DNA from: a plasmid
DNA: 64,000 bases
Sequence record: NZ_CP041047.1
Strand: one strand, 5' to 3'
Positions 11,866-52,303 of the stretch are shown in pieces. A program made the position numbers and the translations under genes. Positions within the stretch are counted from its first letter, which is position 1. The number at the start of each line of letters is the position of its first letter. The notes under the pieces are model-generated. The model saw only the letters and a program-made list of their open reading frames with translations, did not search any database and was not told where the DNA came from.

Positions 11866-12405
11866 TACTCTATCTCCTTCGTGAGTCGCGTAGCTTCCTG
11901 ATGAAGCCACTATCTTGAAGACGAATGAACTCGCAAAAGGATGCAGAAATTTTCTTCGAGATTGATTTCAGTAATCCTCACGCCGAGGTGCGTGGTAACA
12001 AGCCCGACCACTGTAGTCAAAGTGCACTTGGCAATTACGTATCAACACCTCGCGCAACCGCTGACGAATTCTCCGTAACCTAGACTTCACGACGGAAAGA
12101 CTTAACTCATGAGTATCGGCAAATTCTTGCTTACAAATGCTGTGCTGGGGGCAGTTTGGATATCGAATCTATGGTCACTCCCGTTTTTGCAACACTGATT
12201 TTCGACGATATCATTGGCTTGCTTAAATCTATCCAGCGTCAGAATCGCGCCACGATGAGTTCTGCGCCTGATGAACCTCAGAAAAATCATACGGCTTCAG
12301 ATGAGCCATTCCGATATACAGGTTCTTCAACAGGCCGGTCGGCCGTTTGTATCATCAATGATCAGCATTCGCAAACCAGATAGGTGATTGTTTAAAAATT
12401 TATTG

Positions 12406-12789
12406 TTAGAGACTTACGACGCGAACGTCTGTTGTCGCGTCGTAAGCACCCAGGCTATCCTGGCCAGCTTGTTTGCGAGTGCGCAGGTCACAACAAAGTT
12501 GCTTTTTCTGCACATTAATTCCCTGGCCCAGTTTGCCTTTCTGGTGTTCTAGTTTTTGTTTTTTGTATGAACACTCTGGGGCACTGGACCAGTAATATTC
12601 GGATCTTTTTGTTGCCTCGTTTGCTGATCCCCAACAGAGTTGTTCGACCACCGGTGCTGTACTCACGTGGAAGCAGCCCCGTTGCCGCTGCGAAGTCACG
12701 ACTACTGGCGTAGTGTTTCCCATCGCCAAGCTCAGTGGAAATAGTACTGACCGTGAGCGTTCCCACACAGGGAATGGTCAATAGACGTT
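12406..12789 (-). pseudogene. 3' fragment of a second IS110-family transposase (frameshifted) with a terminal hairpin
   Basis: ...ELGDGKHYASSRDFAAATGLLPREYSTGGRTTLLGISKRGNKKIRILLVQ... then, in a shifted frame, ...NFVVTCALANKLARIAWVL.... A palindrome lies at the 3' end (12412..12448). Confidence 0.55.
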
Positions 12790-13817
12790 GGCCACAACAG
12801 CCTGCCAGTACCTTCTGCGCTCAACCAACATACAAACCCAACGGCTGAATGAGTCATTCCTTTTCTCAGCGCCAATAAGCACTGAAAGATCCCCCTGTAC
12901 CAAGAGCGTTCGCAGATACGAATAACCGGCTTTTGTGATCCTGCCGAGCTTCGGCTTTCCGCCGCTGCTGTATTGTGATTGCGTCAGTCCCAGCCAGGCG
13001 GCCAGTTGACGTCCATTTTTAAAATCATGTGCATTACCGATACTGGCGACCAGCGCACAGGCAGTTGTGGGGCCAACGCCCTTTAGCTCCATCAGCCGCT
13101 GACTGCGATGATCTGTTTTGGCCATGCGGGACAAAATTCGGTCATATTCAGTGATGTTAGCTTCAATGTGTTCCAGCAAATCATCAACACATTGCTGAAC
13201 CTGAAGCGGTAAAGAGCTCTTCTGCACAGAAACTATGTGGCGCAGGGCATCAGTATTTTGTGGCGCGATGACACCGAATTCAGATATCAATCCTCGCAGA
13301 CGATTATACGTTGCTGTTTTCTCTTCTATGAAACCCTGACGGGTGCGGTGTAAGCATTGCATTGCATCGCCTGCTGGCTTTCGTCCTTCACGGGTACAAA
13401 TCGCATATGTGGGCGACGAACCGCTTCACAGATAGCCTGAGCATCAGCTGCATCATTCTTCCCTGATTTGCCGGCCATGCGGTAAGTAGACACAAATTTA
13501 GCGGCCATCAGACGTGGCTCATGACCATACTGCCGAAATAACCTTGCCAAGTAGTGAGCCCCAGAGCATGCTTCCATCCCGATAACACAGGGAGGCAAAC
13601 CTGCAATGGACTCAGGAAGAGCAGCACGCGAAACTTTAGGTTTAACCAGAACAGTTCTGCCATTCTGATCAACACCGTGAACAGCAAACACATTTTTAGC
13701 AAGATCGATACCGACAGTCGTGATAGTCATAACGAATTACTCCGGGACGATGTGTACCCCATGATTGCACAAGAGTTAATCAGGCGCATAATCAGGGAAA
13801 GTCCCTTCCATTCGTTA
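12790..13817 (-). mobile_element. IS110-family element copy (a), 3'-truncated, with a disrupted transposase
   Basis: Transposase split into 13326..13730 and 12778..13362, about 90% identical to the intact copy at 19247..20269. The 5' end sequence ..AACGAATGGAAGGGAC.. is shared with copy (b). Homology breaks at 12789/12790. Confidence 0.65.
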
Positions 13818-13867
13818 AGATGATTTTTTGTACGGTTATGGCCCGATCAAAGACCGAGCCGAATGGG

Positions 13868-14239
13868 TTAACTCTCACCGAAGATAATTTTCTCGAGATC
13901 CTGCAAGTCCTGCTGTGATTGCTCGTTAAGGTTGGCCTCTGTTTTGTCGTACCAGCTAAGTAACTTCTGGCCAAGTGGTGTCAAAACCGAGCCTCCACCT
14001 TTGCTGCCGCCTGTTGACGTGATGACCACGGGCTTACCTATCCCTTTGTTTAACGTATCAATCAGGAGCCACGCCCTTTTATAGGGTATACCCAAATCTT
14101 TTGCGGCGGCTGACAGGGAATGAAACCCATCTATAGCGCGCAATAGATCGATTTTACCCGGCCCCAGCGAGATGTTGTCATTAATGTAAATTCGGGGTCT
14201 GACCAAAATAAAATCAGATATAAGCGCTTTTTTATTCAT
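13868..14239 (-). CDS. ModE-N-terminal-like winged-HTH transcriptional regulator
   Basis: LGPGKIDLLRAIDGFHSLSAAAKDLGIPYKRAWLLIDTLN matches the ModE/LysR-type HTH. Sits upstream of the TauE gene. Confidence 0.6.
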   Translation of the reverse strand: MNKKALISDFILVRPRIYINDNISLGPGKIDLLRAIDGFHSLSAAAKDLGIPYKRAWLLIDTLNKGIGKPVVITSTGGSKGGGSVLTPLGQKLLSWYDKTEANLNEQSQQDLQDLEKIIFGES

Positions 14240-14258
14240 CCTGATACCTTTCTCGAAA

Positions 14259-15071
14259 TTATTTTTGCCGGGTGTGTTTGAACGTTTTGATGGCGGAGAT
14301 AAGAAGGATCACCCCAAGTAAAGTCATAAGTACTTTAACCGGGAACAGGCCGACCAGAAGTCCGCCAATTGCCGCACCAATCACAGATCCGATGACCATC
14401 CATACAAACAGCGGCCTTTCTTTTTTCAGAATCTGGAAAGCATCTGCATTTGTATAACGGGAAAAACCAACAATCATTGTGGGCAGGCTAATCATCAATG
14501 ACAGGCTTCCGGCCAGTTTGATATCAACCCCGAACAGGATAACGATTGTGGGGATCAGAAGCTCACCGCCTGCCACACCGAGCAATGCTGCGACTATCCC
14601 GATAAAGAACCCTGAAATCACACCTGCAATAATTGTGGCAATACCGGGTTGAAATAACCCGCCGGAAATACTGTGCAGTGGTAGCCATGCTTCTGAGAAC
14701 ATGACGAACGACAGTAAAACAAGGAGGAGCAGAATGATTCTGTCCAGCCAGATTCTGGACATCTTAATGGCGCGGCCTGCGGCCCACCATGCCCCAATAA
14801 GACTTCCTGCCAGTAAATTCATGACAATATCAAGATGCTCTACCAACTGATCGGTGGCTATCGATTTTGTGCGGAAAATTAGAGCGATAGCGACAACAGC
14901 GAGGCTCATTGCTTTGTTAAAGATGACGGCTTCCAGGGTGGGTATTTTGAAACTACCGATCAGGACGGGAAGGCGAAACTCAGCCCCACCGAGCCCAATC
15001 AGCCCTCCTAAAGCCCCAATTACCGCGCCTGAGAAAAAACCTTTTCCATTCCTTTTTGAAACTGATGACAT
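14259..15071 (-). CDS. TauE/SafE family sulfite exporter
   Basis: DUF81 membrane protein with GLGGAEFRLP and GVAGGELLIP repeats. Confidence 0.8.
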   Translation of the reverse strand: MSSVSKRNGKGFFSGAVIGALGGLIGLGGAEFRLPVLIGSFKIPTLEAVIFNKAMSLAVVAIALIFRTKSIATDQLVEHLDIVMNLLAGSLIGAWWAAGRAIKMSRIWLDRIILLLLVLLSFVMFSEAWLPLHSISGGLFQPGIATIIAGVISGFFIGIVAALLGVAGGELLIPTIVILFGVDIKLAGSLSLMISLPTMIVGFSRYTNADAFQILKKERPLFVWMVIGSVIGAAIGGLLVGLFPVKVLMTLLGVILLISAIKTFKHTRQK

Positions 15072-21883: not shown

Positions 21884-22387
21884 TTAGTTCGATACCCCAT
21901 GAGTCACGCCTCCGGGTATTGCCAGAAAGTCGGGGGCTTCAGCCATACCTTTGCGCGATAACAGCACTAATCTGTCCTGCGGGGTCGAGACAATTTCATC
22001 CCCGTTATCCAGTACGCTGCCCACCAGCGCGAGCCCTTTCTCGAAGTGTGTAGCTTTCTGGCCAGCGCTTGAAACAATCCGTGCAGATGAACCATCGGTA
22101 TAAGTGACTGCATCACCCTCCACTGCGATTTTGACCATTTGACCGTTGCCTAGATCCATAACCCTGGCGCTATCAACAGCGGTTACGACACCACCTCGCG
22201 CAGTCAGGCTTCCCTCGACCGCAACACGCCAGATTGCTGTTACCGGGTGTTGGCGATCCCTTTCAGCGTTCTGCTCAATAATTTGTCGAGCATCCACATC
22301 CATTGCGGCCAGATCAGCGTCAGAGAAAGGGGATTTGTCAAAGTCGGCCAGCATTTGTTGAGTTGCTTCATTTGTAAACTGCTTCAT
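21884..22387 (-). CDS. Hypothetical protein (167 aa), divergent from umuD
   Basis: Long ORF. No recognisable motif. Confidence 0.4.
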   Translation of the reverse strand: MKQFTNEATQQMLADFDKSPFSDADLAAMDVDARQIIEQNAERDRQHPVTAIWRVAVEGSLTARGGVVTAVDSARVMDLGNGQMVKIAVEGDAVTYTDGSSARIVSSAGQKATHFEKGLALVGSVLDNGDEIVSTPQDRLVLLSRKGMAEAPDFLAIPGGVTHGVSN

Positions 22388-22603: not shown

Positions 22604-22619
22604 CTGTATGGATATACAG
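22604..22619. promoter_or_regulatory. LexA (SOS) box CTGTATGGATATACAG overlapping the umuD promoter (-10 TATAAT at 22597..22602)
   Basis: CTGT-N8-ACAG read directly, 22 bp upstream of the umuD ATG. Confidence 0.75.
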
Positions 22620-24322: not shown

Positions 24323-24471
24323 TCAGCAGTGAAAACTTCATTCGTCATCGATAAAATTCGTCTGTAAACAAAACGAACTTGATATACTCGGTTTCGCTTG
24401 TTATGAGTATGTATGTACATACAGTCCTCCGTGCAGCGGAGGGAGTTTAGAGCCCTTTTTCGGGGATAGAA

Positions 24472-25362
24472 ATGAATATCTCAACAACTTTCCAGACGCT
24501 GGAGAGCGAGATCACACAACTTCGTGGAGTGCTGGGTTCCCGGCTTCCGCTCAAGGCGAGTGTCTGCGTCCTGCCAGCCGTTGCTGATGGCGAAGAAGAT
24601 ATGGCCATCGAACACATCATGCCTGAGCTGAAACAGGGACACGATGCTGTCCATGCTGCCTGCGCGGCATACGCTGACCTGCATATCAGGGATGGCTATT
24701 CGCAGAAGTCCGCTCGGCGCACTACCGGCGTATTATGGTACGACAATACAGATGCGGAATTCTCTCAGCTGGTTACCCGTTTGGTGACATCCATCAACCA
24801 GCATAAAGAGAGCATTCAACGCCACATCATCGAAAACTACGGTGGTGATCGCCGACCGGAATACATGCGCTTCAACGCGCTGCATAGCGCCTGCCCTGGT
24901 GTCATGACCCTGCATCTCTATCGGCAGCTGCGTATGTTTGATAATGCTAACGTCAATCTGGTCAGTTTCGGCTGGAGGCAAAAGACGCTTTTTAGCAGGG
25001 TTAACAAAATCGAGTTGCTCCAGAAGATGGGCAAGGACATCGAGGAAGATGAAGATAAATCAGTCAGACTCAACTCGTTGATTAAGGCTATTGCGCGTGT
25101 ACCGGAAGAAAAGCTTCGCTTACGCCGTCCGGTTAAAGTGCATCCAGCTGCAAACATCGCGATGGCTGATCCTGAACACCCCGACCAGATACTGCGTCTT
25201 TCTGCCGCTTCATCTATGCCGTTCATTATCATTCAGGATGAGCACGTGAAAATTCGGCCATTGCCAGAGTTCGTGGCCAATGAAGTAAAGCCGAGGAGTA
25301 ACCGCCTCAAGACAGATGTGATCGGTATATTCCACGGCGAAAGTATCGAAATGATTCTCTGA
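24472..25362 (+). CDS. tus: Plasmid-borne homolog of the replication terminus-binding protein Tus
   Basis: Collinear blocks match E. coli Tus: STTFQTLESE, GVLWYD, PGVMTLHLYRQL, VSFGWRQK, KLRLRRPVKVHP, MPFIIIQDEH. Confidence 0.7.
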   Translation: MNISTTFQTLESEITQLRGVLGSRLPLKASVCVLPAVADGEEDMAIEHIMPELKQGHDAVHAACAAYADLHIRDGYSQKSARRTTGVLWYDNTDAEFSQLVTRLVTSINQHKESIQRHIIENYGGDRRPEYMRFNALHSACPGVMTLHLYRQLRMFDNANVNLVSFGWRQKTLFSRVNKIELLQKMGKDIEEDEDKSVRLNSLIKAIARVPEEKLRLRRPVKVHPAANIAMADPEHPDQILRLSAASSMPFIIIQDEHVKIRPLPEFVANEVKPRSNRLKTDVIGIFHGESIEMIL

Positions 25363-25455
25363 CCACACCGGCCAAAGGACTGGCCGTATTCCCCCCTCAT
25401 AATTTCGTCACTCGCCGTCCATGCCATACCCTGAAACTAATATTGAAAATTCATT

Positions 25456-26055
25456 ATGTTCAGCAAGGAATGTGGCGTGAAATACTTTGAATGTGCGCTC
25501 AGGTTCAGAATCGCCCCAGGTGACGTGTATGGGATCCACCAGCAACTGGATAAGGTAGTCCAGGAACGTTCTGGGTCGCGACTCCCATACACCTTCTACT
25601 CTCGCAAACAAAGTGCCTCCGACACCCAGGTTGTTCTGAGAACGGCTGTTGCACTCGGGCTCCCTGGCGAAGTCATGAAGGAAATCATGTTTGTGTCTGG
25701 CCAGAAAATTCGAATCTGCGGCTCGCTGGCCACTATTCGACGCGAGGAAGCTGGAGGCCGGAAAAGAGAGATTTGTCCACCTGCCCATGAACTCCCGGAT
25801 TATATCCACTATCACCTGGAACGGGCCGGAGTGATCTGTGGACGGTTACGTATCGTTCGAAGCACCAAGTTCCATATTATTAAGCCCGGGAGCGTTGGCC
25901 GTACATCCCACAAGATCATTGTACCGATGAGCCAGTACGATGCTGAATGCGTGATTGAAGATGTCGGCGCACTTGAACAGGCATACGCTTTCGGGATCGG
26001 CAGAAAGCGGATATTCGGCTTTGGCTATATGAACAGCATCGAAGTGCTTTCCTGA
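25456..26055 (+). CDS. Hypothetical protein with a Cas6/RAMP-like glycine-rich C-terminal loop
   Basis: 199 aa. The C-terminal FGIGRKRIFGFGYM fits the GhGxxxxxGhG G-loop of Cas6-family endoribonucleases. No other cas genes or CRISPR repeats nearby. Confidence 0.35.
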   Translation: MFSKECGVKYFECALRFRIAPGDVYGIHQQLDKVVQERSGSRLPYTFYSRKQSASDTQVVLRTAVALGLPGEVMKEIMFVSGQKIRICGSLATIRREEAGGRKREICPPAHELPDYIHYHLERAGVICGRLRIVRSTKFHIIKPGSVGRTSHKIIVPMSQYDAECVIEDVGALEQAYAFGIGRKRIFGFGYMNSIEVLS

Positions 26056-26343
26056 ACAGGCCATTAAGCATAGTTATTATCTGAATTTCAAACCGACTCG
26101 CAAACTTACGGCATTAACACTTCTGATACACCCTTTAAATGCTGTAAACTGTTGTAGCCCTTACTAAATCGTAAGAGTGGGGATTTGCAGCCCCGACTAA
26201 TGACACGCCGTTCATGTACTTGAACGGTTCGCACTCGCTCGCCTGTTTTTTGTCAATGGTGGGTCGGGGCGTGGGAGCCTTACGGCTCGCCAGTCGTCAT
26301 TAGCTGGTACTGCAAACCATGTTCCGATTCACCACCAAAGGAA

Positions 26344-26601
26344 ATGGAGATGGAAAAACAGGACTGGCATAAGGCAGACATCATAGCTGCGCTACATAAG
26401 AAAGGTTTGTCACTTGCCTCACTGAGTAGGGCTAACGGTCTTTCAAGCAGCACTCTGGCAAATGCACTGACACGTGACTGGCCTAGAGGCGAGATCATCA
26501 TCGCTAATGCAATTGGTGAAGAACCTCAAGAAATATGGCCAACCCGATATTTTGATAAGGCAGGAATGCCGATCAAGAGAATCATAAGAAAACCGGTTTA
26601 A
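26344..26601 (+). CDS. Ner/Nlp-family HTH DNA-binding protein
   Basis: ...WHKADIIAALHKKGLSLASLSRANGLSSSTLANALTRDWPRGEIIIANAIG... is typical of Mu Ner/Nlp. Confidence 0.7.
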   Translation: MEMEKQDWHKADIIAALHKKGLSLASLSRANGLSSSTLANALTRDWPRGEIIIANAIGEEPQEIWPTRYFDKAGMPIKRIIRKPV

Positions 26602-33417: not shown

Positions 33418-33526
33418 TTAGCCATCAGCGATTTATAGCTGAGATTTCGTCACCTGAATATTACGTGGAAAATAGATATCAAATAGCAACATTGATACAG
33501 GCTTAACCGCCTCTGAAGGAAATATT

Positions 33527-38605: not shown

Positions 38606-38927
38606 TACATTTCGTCTCTTTTCAGGTAAACAAAATGGAAACACAATGTATTTTCATTGCAGGTTTCAAAAATTGTTTCACTCTGGGCCATACATGTTTA
38701 GTATGGGGACATAACAAAGAGAACGCTGGCGAGTACGCTGGCATAAAGATCACCTTTCCCGGCCTGGCCGGGATTTTTTTTGTCTGATGTGCCGTCCTTC
38801 TCACCACAAACTTAATATCCTGACTATTTTTATGGATGTGCAGTGCAATTATTTAACGAATTACCATTCGTCACCAGACCGGACAGGCTGATAATAATGT
38901 CATCCGATACAGAGCTGGGGAGGGTGT

Positions 38928-39485
38928 ATGACTAATCGTGGCTATAGCAAAGTAATTATCGAAGGTACTGTAGGCCGTGAGCCTGAAATCCGACAACACC
39001 CTACCCACGGCATCTACGCAAAGATTTATGTAACAACATCTGAGTCCTCAATGGAGGATAAATCTGGTCTGGAGAAAATTACGGAAGAACACTATCAGAT
39101 CATTTTGCTTGGTCAATTTGCTGATGTGGCCCGCAATCATCTTCATGTCGGGACAGGAGTGTACCTGGAGGCCCAATTGCGTACCCGCCTAATCAAGGAG
39201 GATGGTAAAGAACGCTTCTTTATGGACGTACTTGTCAACCCCGTGAAGGGGCATGTTCTTCGCAAAGTCAATGTAGGCGGTAATAAACTGGTGAGTCGTC
39301 ACCTCCAGCAGAACCGTGGGCAGGATCACCGGCAGAATACCAGTTATAGCCGCAGGCCACAAAACACGAACGCGAGGCCAGCAACACCACGCAACTCGCC
39401 CCCAACAATGGAAAATTATTATTTGGGAAATCAGGATGAAGTTCCAGGAAGCACTGGTGCTTATGGAACTGAGATAGCCTTTTAA
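38928..39485 (+). CDS. Divergent single-stranded-DNA-binding (SSB/OB-fold)-like protein
   Basis: N-terminal SKVIIEGTVGREPEIRQ resembles the SSB start. Gly/Gln/Asn-rich tail ends in ...EIAF. Confidence 0.45.
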   Translation: MTNRGYSKVIIEGTVGREPEIRQHPTHGIYAKIYVTTSESSMEDKSGLEKITEEHYQIILLGQFADVARNHLHVGTGVYLEAQLRTRLIKEDGKERFFMDVLVNPVKGHVLRKVNVGGNKLVSRHLQQNRGQDHRQNTSYSRRPQNTNARPATPRNSPPTMENYYLGNQDEVPGSTGAYGTEIAF

Positions 39486-39540
39486 TGATTAGCAGCATAT
39501 CTGTTTTAATTTGTATCATAACTAATGGGGAATTATTGCC

Positions 39541-39894
39541 GTGAATGAATTCAATAACGCACTCCAGACGATACTGGAAAATGGGTCTATGTCATATGGC
39601 CAGGCTGCTATTTATGCCGGTGGTGCAATTTGCGTTGCGGCCCTTTTTTCGGCGATACTCAGAAGTGGACTACTGGTAATTTTGGGAATTGTCTCAGGCT
39701 TTTATCTGTTCAGTCTCAACACTCCAGACAGTACACTGGCGTATACTGCTGCTGCCTCAGACCGTCTCATCGAGCAGGTTAAAGCTGTCGGTGGATGCGC
39801 CACTAGACACATTGAGGATGCGCAAACTCTGGGTATCATCATAAAAAATGGCGATGTTATCGAGATAGCAAAGCAGTGCGGTATTATAAAATAA
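39541..39894 (+). CDS. Hypothetical small membrane protein
   Basis: Two TM segments. Confidence 0.3.
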   Translation: MNEFNNALQTILENGSMSYGQAAIYAGGAICVAALFSAILRSGLLVILGIVSGFYLFSLNTPDSTLAYTAAASDRLIEQVKAVGGCATRHIEDAQTLGIIIKNGDVIEIAKQCGIIK

Positions 39895-40171
39895 TAACCG
39901 TAGCATATTATGATTGATGAATGCCTGAATGGTAATCTGCTCGCGGATTACCATTATTTTTTGAGATGTCTTATAGAACTTATCTAAAATTACATACGAC
40001 TGTCATGACAGTATAAGGTCTTTATGAAAAACGTCGTCAAAACTTTACTACCCTCAGTGAACACTGGTGATCAAGACGAAAGCGTAAAATCGGATACGCT
40101 GACTGGCACTACTAAACCCTGCGACCACGGACTGGTTCATAATCATCTTTTAGGGCAGGAGGCCTGTTACT

Positions 40172-40852
40172 ATGCCAAACACTAACGACTCGCTGACAGG
40201 ACTCAACGTCGAGCTCGTTGGTGCATCGAAACAAGAGTTTACTCTCCTCACTGAAAACCATCTGATGCGCCGCATCATAGTGGCTTTATCTGAGTTAATG
40301 CGTAACGCGGAAGGCGTGATGATTGATTCTCATGTTTACCCGTGGGATCAAGTTCTCCCTGCTGCGATGGACATTCCATCATCCAACGCTTCTGATGAAG
40401 AGATACAGAACTGGATGATCAGTGCCTGTAAGGAGTGGCAGTGCGAATACAATCGCCGGGTTCAGTCGTTTACCGCATCAGAAGTAAAAAGCAAAAGCGA
40501 CACCGAGAACGATAACCTATTCCTGCTGAATATCACCAACCTAGCCCATATGCTGATTGACCGGTTACTGCCGTTTGTCAGTATCGAGGAGATTAATCAT
40601 GAGGATCCAGATTTACTCCCCCAAGTTATTGATATCGTGAATTATATGGTTGGTGTTATAAATGGTACAACCAGCACACAACAAGTCAGACAAGAATTGT
40701 TTACTGCCGGTGCTGATGACGCAGTATTTGCACTCAAACTAAAGCACAAAGAGCTAACCAGCCGGGGTGAAGATGCTGGATGGCTTGAAGAGGCAATGAA
40801 GATAATCGAAGAAAACAAACGCCAATCCATCGACTTTATGCAGCGCAGCTAA
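40172..40852 (+). CDS. Hypothetical protein (226 aa)
   Basis: ORF only. Confidence 0.35.
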   Translation: MPNTNDSLTGLNVELVGASKQEFTLLTENHLMRRIIVALSELMRNAEGVMIDSHVYPWDQVLPAAMDIPSSNASDEEIQNWMISACKEWQCEYNRRVQSFTASEVKSKSDTENDNLFLLNITNLAHMLIDRLLPFVSIEEINHEDPDLLPQVIDIVNYMVGVINGTTSTQQVRQELFTAGADDAVFALKLKHKELTSRGEDAGWLEEAMKIIEENKRQSIDFMQRS

Positions 40853-40879
40853 TCGTTCCCATAATAAAAGGGTAATGCT

Positions 40880-41194
40880 ATGAGTAAACATCTGTACTGT
40901 ATTAAGGGTGTTTTAAAACCCAGGAAATTTTCTGTAAGTCTGATAAGAAATAAACTTAGCTCATTTGGTTTAAGGGGAAGTACTCTTCGTAGCGAAACCG
41001 CTCGCATTCTTGCCGGGCCAATAGATGGTATTAAGGGTACGTATCCCTTCGGCTGGTCAGAAGAACATTTTGACCGCAGGATGAAACGCATATTCATTCG
41101 CGCCGGTAATGCTTCCAGACTTTCTGATAATCGTCCATTTGCATTAAAACGACGCAGCGCTTTAACTATCAGTAAAAAGTATCTTTCTGTGTAA
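40880..41194 (+). CDS. Hypothetical protein (104 aa)
   Basis: ORF only. Confidence 0.3.
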   Translation: MSKHLYCIKGVLKPRKFSVSLIRNKLSSFGLRGSTLRSETARILAGPIDGIKGTYPFGWSEEHFDRRMKRIFIRAGNASRLSDNRPFALKRRSALTISKKYLSV

Positions 41195-41211
41195 CCACCA
41201 GCAGACGAGTT

Positions 41212-41574
41212 TTACTCGTCTGCCTGGCCCCATGCCTCTAATCTTCGCACCCGAAATGAAGTTGCCTGGAGTTCTCCTGATGAAGTTAACTCAAATGAAA
41301 CTGTAAGATCGTTTTTGTTCCGGTACTTCCATACATAGCCATTTTGCTGCAATGTTTTGAGTGACTTACGTAGGTTGGGCTCAGCTACATCCTGGCTGTC
41401 TGGAACAGAGTTAATAAACCCCAGCAACCTGGTGAATGGCACTATCGCAGTGCCTTTTTCTTTGCACAAAAGAAGAAGTACCAACGCATCCTTCTGAATA
41501 CGGGAAAAGCGCTCCAGGCGATGTTCAGTACCATCTCCCTGCATATTGGCATTGTTCATAATCAACCTAATCAT
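41212..41574 (-). CDS. Hypothetical protein, possible wHTH (120 aa)
   Basis: Opposite-strand ORF. Confidence 0.35.
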   Translation of the reverse strand: MIRLIMNNANMQGDGTEHRLERFSRIQKDALVLLLLCKEKGTAIVPFTRLLGFINSVPDSQDVAEPNLRKSLKTLQQNGYVWKYRNKNDLTVSFELTSSGELQATSFRVRRLEAWGQADE

Positions 41575-41692
41575 ATGGGATATGATTAAGGTTAAAAAAC
41601 ACCCCCCGTTTTGTCACCCTTTTTTTTTCTTACTCACCACTTAAAGCAGTAAGCTCAGTTCGATAAATCTGAATTAAATAAGGCGAGGTTAT

Positions 41693-42106
41693 ATGAAAAC
41701 GAAATTATTGCTGGCGCTAATTGCGGGATCGACTTTCTGCATCAATATTGCTGAAGCCAATATTCCTCTTAGAGCAGATGGAAGTCCGGCAGCGGGGCAG
41801 ACACCAACTCAGTTCATTCAGCTTAAAAATGAATGTCCTGAATGCGTCATGGTCGCAACTGATGTAGTAAAGATGCGTAGCGATAGCTGTAAACAGCAGG
41901 CATCCATCGATTCTACAATCCTACAGGATCCTGTTTACGCATATCTCAACAGTATCCGTCTGGTAGTTGCCGGGAATGGTGGTTATGCAAGTCCAATCTA
42001 TACATCCGCCCGTCAGGTCGTAGCGTCAAACATCAATTGCAGTGATGCAAACGACTGGGTAGCGAGAAGTAAAACGGTAATGGATAACACCTTCAAAACG
42101 CCGTAA
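41693..42106 (+). CDS. Hypothetical secreted protein (137 aa)
   Basis: Signal peptide MKTKLLLALIAGSTFCINIAEA. Confidence 0.4.
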   Translation: MKTKLLLALIAGSTFCINIAEANIPLRADGSPAAGQTPTQFIQLKNECPECVMVATDVVKMRSDSCKQQASIDSTILQDPVYAYLNSIRLVVAGNGGYASPIYTSARQVVASNINCSDANDWVARSKTVMDNTFKTP

Positions 42107-42210
42107 ACAATCCCTGAATATTTCGTTGCAGTAATGCTATCCCGTAGTATGACGTTAAAGGCGGAGCTTTGAATCGGGAAAAAATAACTACTGCACTTAG
42201 AGGTATTTAT

Positions 42211-42495
42211 ATGGGTCGTCACTTTACTGGTCTGATTGATAGTTCGCAGCAAAATTTTACAATGCCAATCCGTCCGTATGGACGGAGCCGCATGGCTGCA
42301 AAATTAAAAGGAATCTCCCGATTGAAAAAATCTGAAAAGCATGACGATGAATATCCTGATGAACTCTGGAAATTTATGAGTCCTTCAGAGAAAGCTAAAT
42401 TTCTGGTCGCGGATGTATTTTCACGCAGTAGTAAAGACTCTTCCGCCATTCAACCGGGAGAACATAAGCAAAAGGAGCATGATAATGAGCACTGA
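42211..42495 (+). CDS. Hypothetical protein
   Basis: ORF with an AGAGGT RBS. Confidence 0.3.
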   Translation: MGRHFTGLIDSSQQNFTMPIRPYGRSRMAAKLKGISRLKKSEKHDDEYPDELWKFMSPSEKAKFLVADVFSRSSKDSSAIQPGEHKQKEHDNEH

Positions 42496-42829
42496 TAATT
42501 TACTAGCAGAACTCACTTCAAAAACAGGCCTGACAGAAACGGAACTTAATCGGCAGGCATTGATTATCGGTTTGATGGCATTGTGCCACCCGGATGCTAT
42601 TGCCGGTGATTTGGTGAGCGCGGCACTTACGGGGTCATACTCAGATAGTACTGATAAACTACTTACCCGTGGTGATAACGCATCAGACAGTGTGTTGATG
42701 TCCATGCGTATCTTACTTCACCGGTTGAGTAAGTATGAAGGGTCTGATGGCAAAGTAGGTCAGATCAATAAAATGATGCACCGACTCGGCTACTTTAAGG
42801 CATCCGATGTGTTACGCGAGGCTCAATAA
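42485..42829 (+). CDS. Hypothetical protein
   Basis: ORF. AAGGAG RBS 7 nt upstream. Confidence 0.3.
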   Translation: MSTDNLLAELTSKTGLTETELNRQALIIGLMALCHPDAIAGDLVSAALTGSYSDSTDKLLTRGDNASDSVLMSMRILLHRLSKYEGSDGKVGQINKMMHRLGYFKASDVLREAQ

Positions 42830-42841
42830 AGAGGCTCAATT

Positions 42842-43142
42842 TATGTTCACCATGACGAATTTCGCGTCCAATATTCTTGACATGGTTTTTCTATCAGAAA
42901 TGGAAGGGGAACTCATTTATATAAAAGCGCTTAGCGGCGTTACTGGTTACGTTCCTCAGATCCATCTTTTCCGCCTCCAGCTTATCGCATTTGATATAGG
43001 TTGGTACTACGAGTACAGATTGAATTCAGGCAACCTCATTATAAAGGAAATTGTTGAGGCCATCACATCTCTTGGATGTGCTTTAAATGAATACCAATGG
43101 CAGTTCGCGTTTGAATTAGGTTATCGCCGTCACCACAAATAA
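42842..43142 (+). CDS. Hypothetical protein
   Basis: ORF. AAGAGG RBS. Confidence 0.3.
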
Positions 43143-43229
43143 ACTTCATTTTTTCATAATTTGCTATTCGTCACTTGATTGACCGGGGGTACGATTAATT
43201 TAACACGGATAATTATGGGAGACAGTAAA

Positions 43230-44498
43230 ATGACAGACGCATCTACAATAGACGCAGTTCAACCAAAGGCAAGACGCTTATCATTTAAAGAGCTTCCAGG
43301 GTTTGATATTTCTGCTGAAGCACTTCTCAAAATTATCGAAATGCCGTGTATGGTTATTCGCCGGTCTCCTGCAATGAAAGTACTGGAGATGATCACGCTG
43401 CGGTTACGTGGGGATTGTCTTTCTGCCCTTGGCATTGACTTAAACTCTGCCCAAATTACCAGTAAAGGGACGGTATCGGGGGGCAATGGTGATATGGACG
43501 TATCAGTACCTGCAACACAACTCTTTTCTTTAATCCGCAACATGCGCGGCGAAGATGAAATTAACGTCCGCTTCCATGCGGCAAAAAACCATCTTGTCAT
43601 TCGCACCGACAAAAACTCCTATAACATCCCGGTTTGCTTAGACCATATACCCGAAATTCAGGCTGAGACGCTGGAACATAATTACAGCGTTTACTTTCCA
43701 ACGCAGATGCTGAGTCAGATTATCAAGCGTGTCAGCCACGCTGCGGCTCAGAACGATGTCCGCTTTTATATGAATGGGGTCTACCTCGGTATCGATAATG
43801 GCCAATTTATTGCTGTAGCCACTGATGGACATCGTATGGCCGTCAGTTCTCATGATATCGACTTCAGCGATGACGTGGGCGATGAGATTCAATCTCCGAC
43901 AGCTCCTACCTCTATCAGTAACACGAATGCAGGTGTGATTTTACCCAACGGGGTTTTCCCCGTGCTCCATAAAATCCTGAGCGGTAGCCAGGGTCAATTC
44001 AAAATTGACTACAGCAACCGTAACCTGACATTTACGCTCGGAAGCCATACAGTCATTTCAAATCTTGTCGATGGCCGTTACCCGGACTGGAAGCGCGTGG
44101 CCAGCACGGTAGCCAAAAATACTGAACTGTTTAAGGTTGATCCTTCTGAACTCACCACCGCACTAAAACGCGCAACCCCATTGCTTAAAGAGGGCTCGCC
44201 AAACAACACCAGTGTTTGTGTGATGTCATTCAAAGACAACGCCCTACAGCTTAAGTCGCCCGGCTCAAATGCAATCAGTTGCAAAGAGGTGATGGACATT
44301 GCGAAAGAGGCAGGCGAGCCCGAAACAATTGTTGATATCGGTATGAATGCCGATTACCTCCTGGAATCACTGGCAAGCCTGGGGGCGTGTTCGGAAGAAG
44401 GAGAAGCCGCACAGATTGCTTTGCGTGATACAACGACCGGCATATTGATTTCAGTAAACAAAAACAATTACGACATCATCATGCCTGTCCGTGTCTGA
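43230..44498 (+). CDS. DNA polymerase III beta-subunit (sliding clamp, DnaN)-like protein
   Basis: Three-domain length (about 420 aa). FYMNGVYLGIDNGQFIAVATDGHRMAV, GRYPDWKRV, IGMNADYLLESL and the C-terminal ...IIMPVRV align with conserved DnaN blocks. Confidence 0.6.
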   Translation: MTDASTIDAVQPKARRLSFKELPGFDISAEALLKIIEMPCMVIRRSPAMKVLEMITLRLRGDCLSALGIDLNSAQITSKGTVSGGNGDMDVSVPATQLFSLIRNMRGEDEINVRFHAAKNHLVIRTDKNSYNIPVCLDHIPEIQAETLEHNYSVYFPTQMLSQIIKRVSHAAAQNDVRFYMNGVYLGIDNGQFIAVATDGHRMAVSSHDIDFSDDVGDEIQSPTAPTSISNTNAGVILPNGVFPVLHKILSGSQGQFKIDYSNRNLTFTLGSHTVISNLVDGRYPDWKRVASTVAKNTELFKVDPSELTTALKRATPLLKEGSPNNTSVCVMSFKDNALQLKSPGSNAISCKEVMDIAKEAGEPETIVDIGMNADYLLESLASLGACSEEGEAAQIALRDTTTGILISVNKNNYDIIMPVRV

Positions 44499-44648
44499 CA
44501 AAACGCTCTCGTTTTGTCGGCCTTTTCGAAATAGCCAATTTCATGGGCGTGATAACGTTAAAACAAGCTTCCTGACGGGATGGCTATATGCCATCTCGCT
44601 CCCATTGGTCGCGATCACTGCGTCCTAATATTCTGGAGCCAGAATGAA

Positions 44649-45470
44649 ATGAAAAGCGTTCTGAAGTGGGTAGGAGCCAAACACAACATTATGGCAAGTC
44701 TTAAGCATGTACTACCGAAAGGTGGTCGGCTTATTGAGCCCTTTGGCGGTTCAGGCGCTGTAATGATGAATACGAATTACCCAGAATACATTTTGGCCGA
44801 TATTAATAGCGACCTGATCGATACATACCAGAGTATTTTTAAGTCGCCTGAAAAGGTACTTTCTGAGCTTAAACGCCTTTACTGTCTCGGGCGTTCTGAG
44901 GACGCCTATTATGAGCTGCGAAGCCAGTTCAATAATCATGATAGTGCAAGTGACACTCAAGCTGCTCTGTTTATCTATCTGAATAGGTTTGGCCATCGCG
45001 GACTATGCCGATACAACCGGAAAGGCATCTTTAACGTCCCCTGGGGTTATTACGCCAACCCCTATCTCCCAGAGACAGAGTTATACGCAATGGCTGAGAA
45101 AATGTCCTCAGCAACTTTACTTTGCGCCAGCTTCCAGACCACGCTATCAATGGCCCGCCCGGGTGATGTGGTGTATTGCGACCCACCATATGTTAATCCC
45201 GGCAGATTCACGGCTTACCATGCCAGCGGTTTTACACCCGCTATGCAGATTGAGCTTACCAAACTGCTCCAGTTGCTGCCTGAACGCGGGGTTCATGTCA
45301 TCGCATCATGCCACGATGCGCCTGATATTCGTGAGCTTTATCAAGCCTTCGCTATTCATGGTGTGACTGCCCGGAGAAGCATATTTAAAGGCAGCGGGGA
45401 TGGGAAAAAAGCTTCAGAAATCTTCGCGGTCAAATTAGCGGATAACTCGAAAAAGGGAGCTGCGGCATGA
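44649..45470 (+). CDS. Dam-family N6-adenine DNA methyltransferase (orphan; no cognate endonuclease seen)
   Basis: LKWVGAK, FGGSGAV (motif I) and DPPY (motif IV) in alpha-class order. Confidence 0.75.
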   Translation: MKSVLKWVGAKHNIMASLKHVLPKGGRLIEPFGGSGAVMMNTNYPEYILADINSDLIDTYQSIFKSPEKVLSELKRLYCLGRSEDAYYELRSQFNNHDSASDTQAALFIYLNRFGHRGLCRYNRKGIFNVPWGYYANPYLPETELYAMAEKMSSATLLCASFQTTLSMARPGDVVYCDPPYVNPGRFTAYHASGFTPAMQIELTKLLQLLPERGVHVIASCHDAPDIRELYQAFAIHGVTARRSIFKGSGDGKKASEIFAVKLADNSKKGAAA

Positions 45471-45697
45471 AACGCTTCCATTGTTCTGAAAAGCTGCATA
45501 ACCCAGAGACTGAGAAATTTTGTCAGGATATCGCCGAACAATATCGGACAGCACCTGATATTGCCGTGGCGCAGTTTAAACAAGTGCTGAGCTCTAAGCC
45601 TCTAACTTACTGGGAGTGTGTCGTGATCCGCGAGCGTGTCTCTGACCTTATTAAAATTAATCAAGCAACAGCTGAGGGCCACGATGAGCCAATTTAA
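45467..45697 (+). CDS. Hypothetical protein (76 aa)
   Basis: Overlaps the Dam stop. Confidence 0.3.
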   Translation: MKRFHCSEKLHNPETEKFCQDIAEQYRTAPDIAVAQFKQVLSSKPLTYWECVVIRERVSDLIKINQATAEGHDEPI

Positions 45698-46667
45698 ACC
45701 CAAAAGCCTTGTAGTCTACCGCATCCAAAAAGCTCTGGAATTAGACAAGCTGGATGAACAGTTAAGTGAGTTGAAATACACTCCCTGCGGGCCTAATGAT
45801 ATGGCACGGTCAGGATGGATCCCGCCATTGGGTGAAGATGTCGAGCTGTTAAAGCATGAGTCGAATAATCTCATTCTTCTGACTGTTAAGCACGAATCGA
45901 AAATACTTCCTCCCGCGACCATCAAAGAAATTGTGCGAACCCGGGTTCAGAAACTGGAGAAAGAGCAAAACCGCAGGCTAAAGAAAATGGAGATCCAGGC
46001 CGTCAACGATGCCGTGCTCGCTGAGCTCATACCAAAGGCTTTCAGCAAATACAGCACTACAAACATTTGGGTGGATACTAAATCACGTCTACTGCTTGTT
46101 GAGACCACCAGCCATAAAAAAGCAGATGATGTAACAGCTTTGCTACGTAAAACTATTGGCTCACTTCCAATTATCCCATTCACGCTGGAAACGCCGGTAG
46201 AACTGACGTTAACAGAGTGGGTCAAAACAGGAAGTCTGCCGCCTGGCCTAGCTTTATGCGACGAAGCCACGCTCAAAGATGTGCTCGAAAACGGGGGGGT
46301 CGTTACAACAAAACGCCAGGATTTGATATGTGATGAGATCGCTCATCACATCGAGGCCGGAAAGCTTGTGACAAAGGTTGCACTGGGCTGGATGAACCAG
46401 ATGTTTTTCATCCTGAATGACAATTTCATCTTTTCACGACTGACCTTTACGGAAGAACTTATTGAACAGAACGATGACATTTCGCCAGAAGATCACGCCC
46501 AAAGATTTGATGCCGATTTCGTTTTGTTTACCTCTGTTGTTATGGAGGTTCTGGACACAATGATAAAAGCCCTCGGGGGTGAAAGCCCAGGACTCATCAC
46601 AACGCCGTCAGACGAACAACAAGGTGTCGCGGCAGAAGCCAAACAACCAGAAAAAACCTTCCATTAA
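45684..46667 (+). CDS. rdgC: Recombination-associated protein RdgC homolog
   Basis: Collinear with E. coli RdgC: ...YTPCGPNDMARSGWIPP..., KKMEIQAVNDAVLAELIPKAFSKYSTTNIWVD, LTLTEWVKTGSLP, RFDADFVLFT. Confidence 0.75.
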   Translation: MSQFKPKSLVVYRIQKALELDKLDEQLSELKYTPCGPNDMARSGWIPPLGEDVELLKHESNNLILLTVKHESKILPPATIKEIVRTRVQKLEKEQNRRLKKMEIQAVNDAVLAELIPKAFSKYSTTNIWVDTKSRLLLVETTSHKKADDVTALLRKTIGSLPIIPFTLETPVELTLTEWVKTGSLPPGLALCDEATLKDVLENGGVVTTKRQDLICDEIAHHIEAGKLVTKVALGWMNQMFFILNDNFIFSRLTFTEELIEQNDDISPEDHAQRFDADFVLFTSVVMEVLDTMIKALGGESPGLITTPSDEQQGVAAEAKQPEKTFH

Positions 46668-46678
46668 AGGGCTGAGAG

Positions 46679-47557
46679 ATGATTACAGCTACAGAACTCC
46701 AAGAGTTATCACGCCAGGTTGAAAATGCTAACATTGCCCGAGCCCTGGCAGTTAAAGAGTTGGTTAAAGAGACAAGAGATCGTCAGTTTTCATTGTGGGC
46801 GCTATTTATTGGTCTCTTCAGAGAGACACCGGCGCGAAAAAAGCTGAACGAATGTGAATTGCATCTTAACCTGCTGCTGCCAAAATGCAGGAGCATCTTT
46901 CTTCAATACGTAGTTATGTCCTCGTTGGAAGAAATTTCGAAATCACCAGATTGTGAGATTTATCAGCATCTAGTCAACTGCTGGAAAGAAGCTCAGATAA
47001 AATATAACGAGTCAGGCAGACGACTCAAACTTGCAGAAAATGCCCGTGAACTATTAAAAACAGCAAAGGATGAATGTAATAGTGCTTCCACAACTGAATT
47101 TCTGGATATGGTTACTACCAGTAAAGCAATATCCATACTTTCAGCAATAGACACATCCTCTGCGAGTAGTTCGTTAAAGAGAGCTATGGGTGCGCTTAAG
47201 CGATTAGCAGATGAAATGCCTGCCCGGCAATCACCTATTGATTCAAATTTACCAGATGACACGCTTGATCTGTTTGTCGATCTGACTATAAATCCTGTTA
47301 TCGATATTCTCTCCTGGTTAAATATTGAAAAGCTGGATAATGCCGAAGTGCAGTGCAGCAAAGCCTTAAAGAAACTTCAGACGTTATTAGGACAACTGGG
47401 TGCTGAGCATGATTTGAGAACTAAGGATTATCAATCTCAATTAGATACGCTTAAGAGAATTGAACAACCATACATCAAAAAGGTGATGCGGCATATACCC
47501 GAAAATATGAAGTTCAAGGAGCCTGAGTATCTCCAGACTATAGGAATGAACCCATGA
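46679..47557 (+). CDS. Hypothetical alpha-helical protein (292 aa), first gene of a 3-gene operon
   Basis: Its stop overlaps the next gene's start. Confidence 0.4.
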   Translation: MITATELQELSRQVENANIARALAVKELVKETRDRQFSLWALFIGLFRETPARKKLNECELHLNLLLPKCRSIFLQYVVMSSLEEISKSPDCEIYQHLVNCWKEAQIKYNESGRRLKLAENARELLKTAKDECNSASTTEFLDMVTTSKAISILSAIDTSSASSSLKRAMGALKRLADEMPARQSPIDSNLPDDTLDLFVDLTINPVIDILSWLNIEKLDNAEVQCSKALKKLQTLLGQLGAEHDLRTKDYQSQLDTLKRIEQPYIKKVMRHIPENMKFKEPEYLQTIGMNP

Positions 47558-52150: not shown

Positions 52151-52303
52151 TGGGGAAAGGAAGAGCTGGTCGAGTTAATTTCGTCACCCGTAACTGAACA
52201 GAAAAAATGAGATAGAGAAAAAGCCGTCAGTTTGTCGATGTTAAATGCTATTCAAATTTTTCAACATGCGACAATTGAGCCAACTACATGAAGAGGAAAC
52301 ACA

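Follow-up and report, generated by a model that had tools for sequence, protein, structure and literature searches.

A stand-alone type IV-A3-like cas6 gene beside tus on large MOBH-type enterobacterial plasmids, with a neighboring C4 antisense RNA module

General features of the tus-cas6 region

The window, i.e., the whole stretch of DNA analyzed here, comprises 64,000 nucleotides of a plasmid (sequence record NZ_CP041047.1), and the region of interest within it (positions 24323 to 26343) carries tus, encoding a homolog of the DNA replication terminus site-binding protein, and cas6, encoding an endoribonuclease of the CRISPR systems. The gene order in the 5'-to-3' direction is umuD-umuC, tus, cas6, a 288-bp spacer, a Ner/SfsB-like HTH_35 gene, and a GNAT acetyltransferase gene (Table 1). 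The region is best explained as two unrelated modules, tus with a solo cas6 and a spacer carrying a C4 RNA, on a large MOBH-type enterobacterial plasmid backbone. The noteworthy element is the stand-alone, tus-linked Cas6 lineage; both Tus and C4 belong to known families and are ordinary examples of them. The open reading frames (ORFs), the spacer, its hairpins and inverted repeat, and the palindrome aTGTATGTACATACAG upstream of tus (24409..24424), which had been listed in a first-pass annotation of this DNA, were all found at the positions given there.

Counterparts of the window at 99% identity or more are present in PLSDB in 104 large plasmids of about 180 to 450 kb, the hosts of which are Citrobacter, Klebsiella, Enterobacter, and their relatives, and the plasmids of this type that have a typed relaxase are MOBH. 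The sister plasmid NZ_CP056246.1 (complete, 178.8 kb) was pieced together from four segments. The lineages compared are the window type, L002, and plasmids of Providencia and Moellerella, together with L007 (NZ_CP122576.1), a Klebsiella/Serratia plasmid type.

Table 1. Coordinates and basis of the features discussed (window positions unless a locus is named)
Feature	Position	Strand	Basis or remark
Putative tus promoter, TTGATA-17 nt-TATGAG	24379..24407	+	Read from sequence; weak by consensus
Near-LexA-box palindrome aTGTATGTACATACAG	24409..24424	+	One base off CTGT-N8-ACAG
Leader hairpin 1, CCTCCG-TGCAG-CGGAGG, extendable to 8 bp; candidate Cas6 ligand	24425..24443	+	Predicted fold
Leader hairpin, window: CCUCCG-UGCAG-CGGAGG			
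Leader hairpin, L002: CCUUCG-UUCAG-CGGGGG			
Leader hairpin, Providencia: CCCCCAC-CACG-GUGGGGG			
Leader hairpin, Moellerella: CCCCUGU-UUCG-GCGGGGG			
Conserved CCCTTTTTCGGGGA element, small hairpin overlapping the likely tus Shine-Dalgarno sequence	24453..24466	+	Cross-lineage comparison
tus, DNA replication terminus site-binding protein homolog, 296 amino acids	24472..25362	+	Pfam PF05472
Hairpin CGGCCA-AAGGAC-TGGCCG, directly past the tus stop codon	25369..25386	+	Read from sequence; conserved in L002
Motif AATTTCGTCAC upstream of cas6, recurrent plasmid promoter/operator motif	25401..25411	+	Cross-lineage comparison
AATTTCGTCAC(C) copies	Window 25401-25411, 33443-33453, 52177-52187, and 31977 (one mismatch); L002 19105; L006 934, 6922; L008 5923	Gene strand	
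Solo cas6, type IV-A3/Cas6e-like endoribonuclease, 192 amino acids from GTG 25477	25477..26055	+	PADLOC profile
Spacer, 288 bp	26056..26343		
Spacer hairpin CTTAC/GTAAG	26160-26175		
Arms of the long imperfect inverted repeat	26184-26204 and 26296-26316		
Box TTTGCAG-N6-CTAATGAC, complementary to both C4 antisense segments	26184..26204	+	Complementarity
Spacer hairpin CCGTTCA/TGAACGG	26208-26227		
C4-family antisense RNA gene	26252..26339	+	Rfam RF01695
Ner/SfsB-like winged-helix regulator (HTH_35)	26350..26601	+	Pfam PF13693, E 7e-33
Type IV-A3 repeat: GUAUUCCCCCCGCAUGCGGGGGUUAUCGG			

Identity and predicted structure of the solo Cas6

The ORF called mechanically for cas6 runs from ATG 25456 to 26055 on the + strand (199 amino acids) and ends in ...FGIGRKRIFGFGYMNSIEVLS. 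The L002 ortholog, which is 80% identical, has no upstream ATG and starts at a GTG after an AAGGAA ribosome-binding site, and the window gene therefore likely starts at GTG 25477, giving 192 amino acids. This intact 192-amino-acid frame, with its GTG start and AAGGAA ribosome-binding site, is kept in the ortholog. The RefSeq coding sequence WP_127649377.1 covers only the 126-amino-acid C-terminal part (window 25675-26055) and is named type I-E Cas6/Cse3/CasE.

The PADLOC profile Cas6_0_IVA3 matches the 199-amino-acid product at full length (E 1.1e-38), and the general profiles remain below their thresholds, with 23.2 bits for Pfam PF08798 (Cse3/CasE; gathering score, 25) and 14.2 bits for TIGR01907 (threshold, 45.2). 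An AlphaFold (AF2) model based on 28 homologs has a mean predicted local distance difference test score (pLDDT) of 95.5 and a predicted template modeling score (pTM) of 0.87. In a Foldseek search with this model, which has a Cas6e-like fold of two RNA recognition motifs (RRMs; ferredoxin-like), the top 50 PDB matches are all Cas6/Cse3/CasE proteins, the best being Thermus thermophilus Cse3 (template modeling [TM] score, 0.76), with Escherichia coli CasE at 0.73. H21 is invariant and Y18 nearly invariant among the 28 homologs, and the two residues align with the catalytic H26 and Y23 of T. thermophilus Cse3. The G-rich loop GIGRKRIFGFG fits the pattern GhGxxxxxGhG, in which G173, G181, and G183 never vary and G175 hardly does. 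The proposal of the first-pass annotation that the 199-amino-acid protein is a Cas6/RAMP endoribonuclease is thus upheld by the IV-A3 profile, the Cas6e-like two-RRM model, the conserved Tyr and His, and the G-rich loop; the profile and structure checks suggested there give a RAMP fold equipped with Tyr and His, not a non-RAMP domain lacking them. By profile and by model, the window Cas6 is assigned to the type IV-A3/Cas6e kind, and its active site and RNA-binding fold are predicted to be intact. The Cas6 of type IV-A3 systems is without a solved structure, as this subunit could not be modeled in the cryo-electron microscopy map (PMC11519345).

Absence of CRISPR partners

No CRISPR array or direct-repeat family is present in the window, and a k-mer scan found no CRISPR array on the complete plasmid NZ_CP056246.1. 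tblastn searches with Cas8, Cas6, DinG, Cas5, and Cas7 of two complete IV-A3 loci detected cas6 alone, both in the window and on the 178.8-kb plasmid. The earlier statement that no other cas genes or repeats lie near cas6 is thus confirmed and widened, with an array, cas8, cas7, cas5, and dinG all missing from the window and from the whole sister plasmid, and cas6 is a true orphan on this plasmid. In PLSDB, Cas6 homologs are found in 78 Citrobacter, 22 Providencia, 8 Moellerella, and 4 Proteus plasmids, and Cas7 homologs are found in 3 Citrobacter plasmids and, among the matches listed, in none of Providencia, Moellerella, or Proteus. Orphan cas loci are a frequent, unexplained feature of plasmids (PMC9071438), and a literature search for stand-alone or orphan Cas6 of the tus-linked kind found nothing relevant.

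On NZ_CP056246.1, one 11-mer is repeated seven times at distances of 45 to 95 bp just upstream of the ParA/ParB genes (132109-132600; L013). This array is probably a partition site and not a CRISPR array.

Lineages and conservation of the solo cas6

The tus-linked solo cas6 was found in four lineages, with the L002, Moellerella, and Providencia proteins being 80%, 45%, and 41% identical, respectively, to the window protein. L002 has the same order as the window (umuDC-tus-cas6-C4-HTH), and the order is tus-DUF6710-cas6 in Providencia and tus-small ORF-cas6 in Moellerella. The solo proteins have diverged as far as the Cas6 proteins of two complete IV-A3 systems have (38% identity). In a neighbor-joining tree, the solo Cas6 proteins group together (62% bootstrap) as sister to the Cas6 proteins of complete systems, within an IV-A3 clade (89%). 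The ratio of nonsynonymous to synonymous substitution rates (dN/dS) of cas6 between the window and L002 is 0.094 at a dS of 1.2, where synonymous sites are near saturation, and is similar to that of umuD. Judged by its codons, the solo cas6 is under selection.

The motif AATTTCGTCAC lies 59 to 76 nt 5' of the solo cas6 start in all four lineages, and AATTTCGTCAC(C) is found on the gene strand 50 to 120 nt upstream of several backbone genes (Table 1). The window contains three copies of ATTTCGTCAC, with 0.15 expected. The motif looks like a promoter/operator of a plasmid regulon.

A complete type IV-A3 locus with a degenerating array is located immediately upstream of tus in L007 (6201-13210), and the tus neighborhood therefore seems to be an old home of type IV-A3 CRISPR. 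Between the two IV-A3 variants L003 and L007, the Cas7 proteins are about 80% identical, the Cas6 proteins are only 38% identical, and the repeats differ at few positions, and Cas6 thus seems either to change far more rapidly or to be swapped as a module. More diverged solo-cas6 loci were not found in a scan of GTDB genome contigs, and a metagenome scan recovered near-identical copies only. Word-index protein searches for diverged solo Cas6 proteins returned few proteins, and an exhaustive Cas6 protein search gave only 42 cluster representatives.

Plasmid Tus and Ter sites

The 296-amino-acid product of tus matches the Pfam Ter family (PF05472) with an E value of 5.5e-45 over profile positions 2 to 281 of 296, and scores 297.8 bits with the NCBIfam equivalog NF002810, just under the cut-off of 323. 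A phmmer comparison aligns it collinearly with E. coli Tus (1ECR) over residues 3 to 230 (E 1.8e-15), and I79, F140, H144, and G149 of the E. coli protein all align with identical residues. In E. coli, these four residues form the pocket that locks the cytosine C(6) in the Tus-Ter lock. The dN/dS of tus between the window and L002 is 0.04. The first-pass assignment of this ORF to Tus is well founded, given the profile match, the statistically sound 1ECR alignment, and the identical lock-pocket residues, and the protein is a true homolog and, by these comparisons, a genuine Tus-family terminator protein. Its description as uncommon for plasmids did not hold, since tblastn detected tus homologs in 1,325 PLSDB plasmids, IncC and IncA among them.

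Ter-like sites on the replicon had been deduced from the presence of tus, and for Ter sites of the E. coli type, searches of the window and of the complete 178.8-kb sister plasmid came back empty. The two copies of GTTGTAAC in the window equal the chance expectation, and neither has a flanking G6. The highest score of a Ter position weight matrix in the window and on the sister plasmid is 10.8 bits, compared with 21 to 29 for genuine sites. This matrix was built on ten E. coli Ter sites, and its consensus may not be that of the plasmid Tus clade.

The hairpin directly past the tus stop codon was not called by a terminator scan; being without a T-run, it would be a weak terminator at most.

The tus leader

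The tus leaders of the four solo lineages share one layout, in which a weak promoter is followed by a palindrome with ACAG at its end, a hairpin with a C-rich and a G-rich arm, and the element CCCTTYYT(Y)CGGGGAT. The window and L002 are 93 to 95% identical in the leader, compared with about 80% in coding DNA. The position and the -35 element of the putative promoter are conserved in the Providencia and Moellerella plasmids, and the promoter was not called by a consensus scan. The element CCCTTYYT(Y)CGGGGAT just before the tus start codon is near invariant across lineages in which Tus is only about 46% identical, and it has no further copy in the compared loci or on the plasmid.

The palindrome keeps its location at the tus transcription start in the four lineages and is the sole copy on the plasmid. 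In the window, it reads ATGT-N8-ACAG and deviates at the conserved C of the LexA half-site, and the Providencia and Moellerella palindromes are two positions off the LexA consensus. The only exact LexA-box match in the window is the perfect box CTGTATGGATATACAG of umuD (22604-22619). The tus gene of L007 is preceded by the canonical LexA box CTGTATAAACCAACAG, which lies within a palindrome of a 14-bp stem (fold z-score, -5.4). The palindrome of the window is probably an operator at the tus transcription start, and SOS control of the plasmid tus is plausible, because the position of the palindrome is conserved, tus follows umuDC, and the L007 tus has the perfect box.

We consider it unlikely that the palindrome is not a LexA site and instead serves as an operator of Tus itself, as a diverged Ter-like sequence, or of another plasmid repressor. 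This idea comes from the hexamer AGTATG, which stands directly before the palindrome in three diverged lineages and equals Ter positions 5 to 10, including G6, making an autoregulatory Tus operator a rival reading. All three of these lineages lack the conserved C of the LexA half-site, and there is a parallel in E. coli, where tus is autoregulated via TerB in its own promoter. However, the core GTTGTAAC is absent at the palindrome, the score with the E. coli Ter matrix is low, a single-copy palindrome cannot form a fork trap, a perfect LexA box occupies the same place in the related L007 locus, and the tus gene of the window follows umuDC.

A hairpin is predicted at the equivalent place of the leader in 4/4 solo lineages (Table 1). 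With the register set by hand, seven of its base pairs are kept in every lineage, two of them by changes on both sides (U-A to or from C-G and G-C to or from A-U), and several are kept as G-U, which is valid only in the sense (+ strand) RNA. The hairpin is absent from the tus leader of L007, in which Cas6 has a real array, and from an IncC tus leader, and no other copies of the leader elements occur on the plasmid. The stem of 6 to 7 bp, C-rich on one side and G-rich on the other with a loop of 4 to 5 nt, falls into the class of the IV-A3 repeat stem (CCCCCG-CAUG-CGGGGG), and the Moellerella stem CCCCUG/CGGGGG is identical to the repeat stem of L007. By inference only, from its position and its stem, the leader hairpin is the best candidate for the Cas6 substrate.

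As a recognizable IV-A3 repeat, the leader hairpin was rejected: a covariance model of 14 genuine IV-A3 repeats did not report it in the window or the solo loci at an E value of 10 or less, and the same search gave no other credible repeat there. What the hairpin shares with the repeats therefore goes no further than the stem class. The 11-mer GTATTCCCCCC at 25385-25395 was likewise rejected as a relic of half a repeat, as it is not conserved in L002 and the number of possible subwords removes its significance; it is probably a chance match.

The C4 antisense RNA spacer and the Ner/SfsB-like gene

The spacer downstream of cas6 folds better than 200 of 200 shuffled sequences (z-score, -3.3) and contains a full-length match to the C4 antisense RNA family RF01695 (model positions 1 to 87 of 87), scoring 62.9 bits against a gathering score of 45; the L002 match scores 62.4 bits. 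The C4 loop GUCAUUAG (26296-26303) is the exact complement of CUAAUGAC at 26197-26204, and the single-stranded CUGCAAA (26310-26316) is the exact complement of UUUGCAG at 26184-26190. The two-part box formed by the latter sites lies 47 nt upstream of the C4 gene, has no second copy in the window or elsewhere on the plasmid, and pairs with the antisense segments in the minimum-free-energy fold. Of the two readings offered for the spacer by the first-pass annotation, a structured RNA or a protein-binding site, the former is borne out as a C4-family RNA, and the long inverted repeat is, by complementarity and predicted pairing, the two C4 antisense segments with their upstream box.

The downstream HTH_35 gene scores 106 bits with NCBIfam SfsB, below the cut-off. 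Its start is likely ATG 26350 and not 26344, with the L002 ortholog being called from the second ATG, and the 3' end of C4 adjoins the ribosome-binding site of the gene. The C4 RNA with its complementary box most likely controls the expression of this adjoining gene. TetR or Xre-RES genes come after cas6 in other tus-cas6 lineages, and the C4 module is therefore not tied to cas6; it is unrelated to Cas6 and belongs with the downstream Ner-like gene. The block 26139-26350 is 97 to 99% identical between the window and L002, compared with about 80% for the flanking genes, which could reflect strong constraint or recent exchange.

Other genes in the window

A stretch at about 38900-46700 of the window (34606-42345 in L001) carries plasmid-borne ssb, dnaN (beta clamp), dam methylase, rdgC, and two PAPS-reductase-family genes, and the ssb/dnaN/dam/rdgC stretch together with umuDC and tus makes up a large DNA metabolism or establishment region. 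At about 12390-14690 (8070-10362 in L001), two TIR-domain proteins and a TRAFs-binding-domain protein are encoded in a Tn3-flanked insert, which may be a defense island. Upstream of umuD, a 167-amino-acid ORF on the - strand (21884-22387) matches a PAAR motif weakly (E 0.007, below threshold) and is also kept in the L019 and NZ_CP056246.1 plasmids.

Possible roles of the solo Cas6

At a probability of about 40%, we propose that the solo Cas6 binds or cuts the leader of its own operon. In this mechanism, tus would be transcribed from a promoter with a LexA-box-like operator in its start region, and Cas6 would bind the tus(-cas6) transcript at the conserved C-rich/G-rich stem-loop of its 5' leader, probably cleaving at the 3' base of the stem. 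Binding or cleavage would process or autoregulate the tus(-cas6) mRNA, and the CCCTTTTTCGGGGA element over the tus ribosome-binding site may take part. Several observations weigh against this proposal. The covariation of the hairpin is drawn from four lineages only, with the register shifted by hand; in the automatic alignment, two of the pairs are broken, with two lineages offset by a single base. Hairpins as GC-rich as that of the leader are no rarity (12 were counted in the window, where 4.6 would be expected), the leader fold is no more stable than shuffled sequence (z-scores not significant), and a 5'-proximal hairpin could simply stabilize the mRNA. The failure of the covariance model of genuine repeats to report the hairpin weakens the proposal and does not exclude it, because the flanks expected by the model are the CRISPR RNA (crRNA) handles to which Cas5 and Cas7 bind, and neither protein is present here. 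Co-transcription of tus and cas6 is uncertain, given the separate motif upstream of cas6 and the hairpin between the genes, and the bootstrap for a single solo Cas6 clade is only 62%. In addition, cas6 carries a 13-bp deletion in L019 (4001-4563), which shows no other difference from the window, frameshifts in L020 (3928-4525) of a 76%-identical lineage, and a Tn3 truncation in L004 (8001-8423) that recurs in many Providencia plasmids; it has thus been inactivated independently several times and is therefore dispensable.

Type IV-A3 systems play a part in plasmid-plasmid conflict (bioRxiv 10.1101/2023.06.23.546257), and a somewhat unlikely alternative to action on the leader is that the solo Cas6 acts in trans on CRISPR transcripts, either from type I-E arrays of the host or from IV-A3 arrays of coresident plasmids. 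It could do so as a helper or in counter-defense, capturing repeat hairpins and yielding crRNAs unfit for a working effector, and the leader hairpin would then be incidental. The active site and RNA-binding fold that the model predicts to be intact are consistent with such a role, as is the kinship with the Cas6 of the IV-A3 systems, and the low identity of Cas6 relative to Cas7 between two IV-A3 variants (38% versus 80%) suggests an exchangeable Cas6 module. Frequent and unexplained orphan cas loci on plasmids also fit, and the setting of cas6 among ssb, umuDC, dam, rdgC, and dnaN resembles, in our judgment, an establishment or leading-region gene set. However, 10 spacers of two IV-A3 arrays, a small sample, gave no match to the plasmid, a single cognate repeat is unlikely given the different CRISPR types among the hosts of the four lineages, and the repeated loss of cas6 argues against a strong benefit. 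Action in trans would also leave the conservation of the hairpin in cis unexplained. Much less probable is that cas6 is a functionless, decaying remnant of an IV-A3 locus that once stood beside tus, as in pKP-2683-1-type plasmids, with the leader hairpins as eroded terminal repeats. The complete locus and array immediately upstream of the L007 tus make such an origin conceivable, the last repeats of that array degenerate to forms like TCCCCTTTTTTGGGG that resemble the leader element CCCTTTTTCGGGG, independent inactivations of cas6 exist, and GTATTCCCCCC between tus and cas6 matches the initial 11 nt of the canonical repeat exactly. Against decay stand the dN/dS of 0.094, with synonymous sites near saturation, and the ORF, catalytic residues, and G-rich loop, which are intact in lineages with proteins only 41 to 45% identical to that of the window. 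The tus-before-cas6 order differs from that of the complete locus, and the 11-mer, for the reasons for which it was rejected above, adds little to the case.

More broadly, and as a tentative proposal that we hold to be doubtful, the solo Cas6 may be a domesticated CRISPR nuclease that several MOBH lineages have kept without a CRISPR system, for leader RNA processing or autoregulation through a repeat-derived hairpin or for counter-defense by hijacking IV-A3 or I-E repeat hairpins during establishment. The notable part is that Cas6, intact and with its catalytic residues, has remained next to tus in deeply diverged plasmids that carry no other CRISPR component; the rest is ordinary, with Tus being common on large plasmids, Cas6 already named in RefSeq, and the spacer RNA belonging to a curated family. 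If Cas6 does regulate its own operon or interfere with rival CRISPR systems, this would be a natural non-CRISPR use of a CRISPR nuclease. The case is compact and easily tested, with one protein and, as the candidate, a single conserved hairpin at 30 nt upstream of tus, and the hosts (Citrobacter, Klebsiella, and Providencia) are clinically relevant and are also exposed to type IV-A3 plasmids.

Comparison with known systems

The plasmid Tus resembles that of the E. coli Tus-Ter fork trap in its family membership by profile and its lock-pocket residues. It differs in aligning with E. coli Tus over residues 3 to 230 only (E 1.8e-15) and in belonging to a plasmid clade of Tus (1,325 PLSDB records), and no GTTGTAAC-type Ter with G6 accompanies it in the window or on the whole sister plasmid.

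The spacer RNA is like c4 of the phage P1/P7 immI operon (RF01695) in its full-length covariance match above the threshold, its tRNA-like closing stem ending in the ACCA-like CACCACCA, and its two antisense segments with a nearby two-part complementary box. For the immI operon of P1, Citron and Schuster reportedly described in 1990 such a'/b' segments together with the boxes complementary to them. In contrast to P1/P7, only the upstream box, the counterpart of a1/b1, is present, with no downstream a2/b2 copy found, the downstream genes encode an HTH_35 (Ner/SfsB-like) regulator and a GNAT acetyltransferase instead of icd/ant, and the C4 gene lies on a conjugative-type plasmid backbone.

Among solved structures, Cas6e (Cse3/CasE) of the type I-E Cascade is the closest to the window Cas6 (3qrp, 2y8w, and 4tvx_M; TM scores, 0.72 to 0.76), and the active-site Tyr and His and the GxGxxxxxGxG loop align between the two. 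Unlike Cas6e, the window protein is without Cascade partners and below the Pfam and NCBIfam thresholds, and the identity in the structural alignments is 12 to 19%. The complete type IV-A3 systems provide its best profile match, with the same length, catalytic His, and G-rich loop; the window Cas6 is 33 to 36% identical to the Cas6 proteins of two complete loci, forms a joint clade with them (89% bootstrap), and resides on the same kind of host plasmid (MOBH megaplasmids), and the complete locus adjoins tus in one variant (L007). Unlike those systems, the window and the whole sister plasmid lack csf1/cas8, csf2/cas7, csf3/cas5, dinG, and a CRISPR array with the 29-nt repeat, and the solo cas6 lies downstream of tus behind its own conserved motif, with no IV-A3 repeat detectable.

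The leader hairpin recalls the solitary repeat units, the RNA anti-CRISPRs (Racr), and other repeat-like regulatory RNAs of mobile elements (PMC10651486) in being a single GC-rich stem-loop of the repeat class next to a cas gene on a mobile element. Unlike Racr, it fails a sequence-plus-structure model of related repeats, it is part of an mRNA leader instead of a small RNA gene in its own right, and it comes together with a Cas6 of its own.

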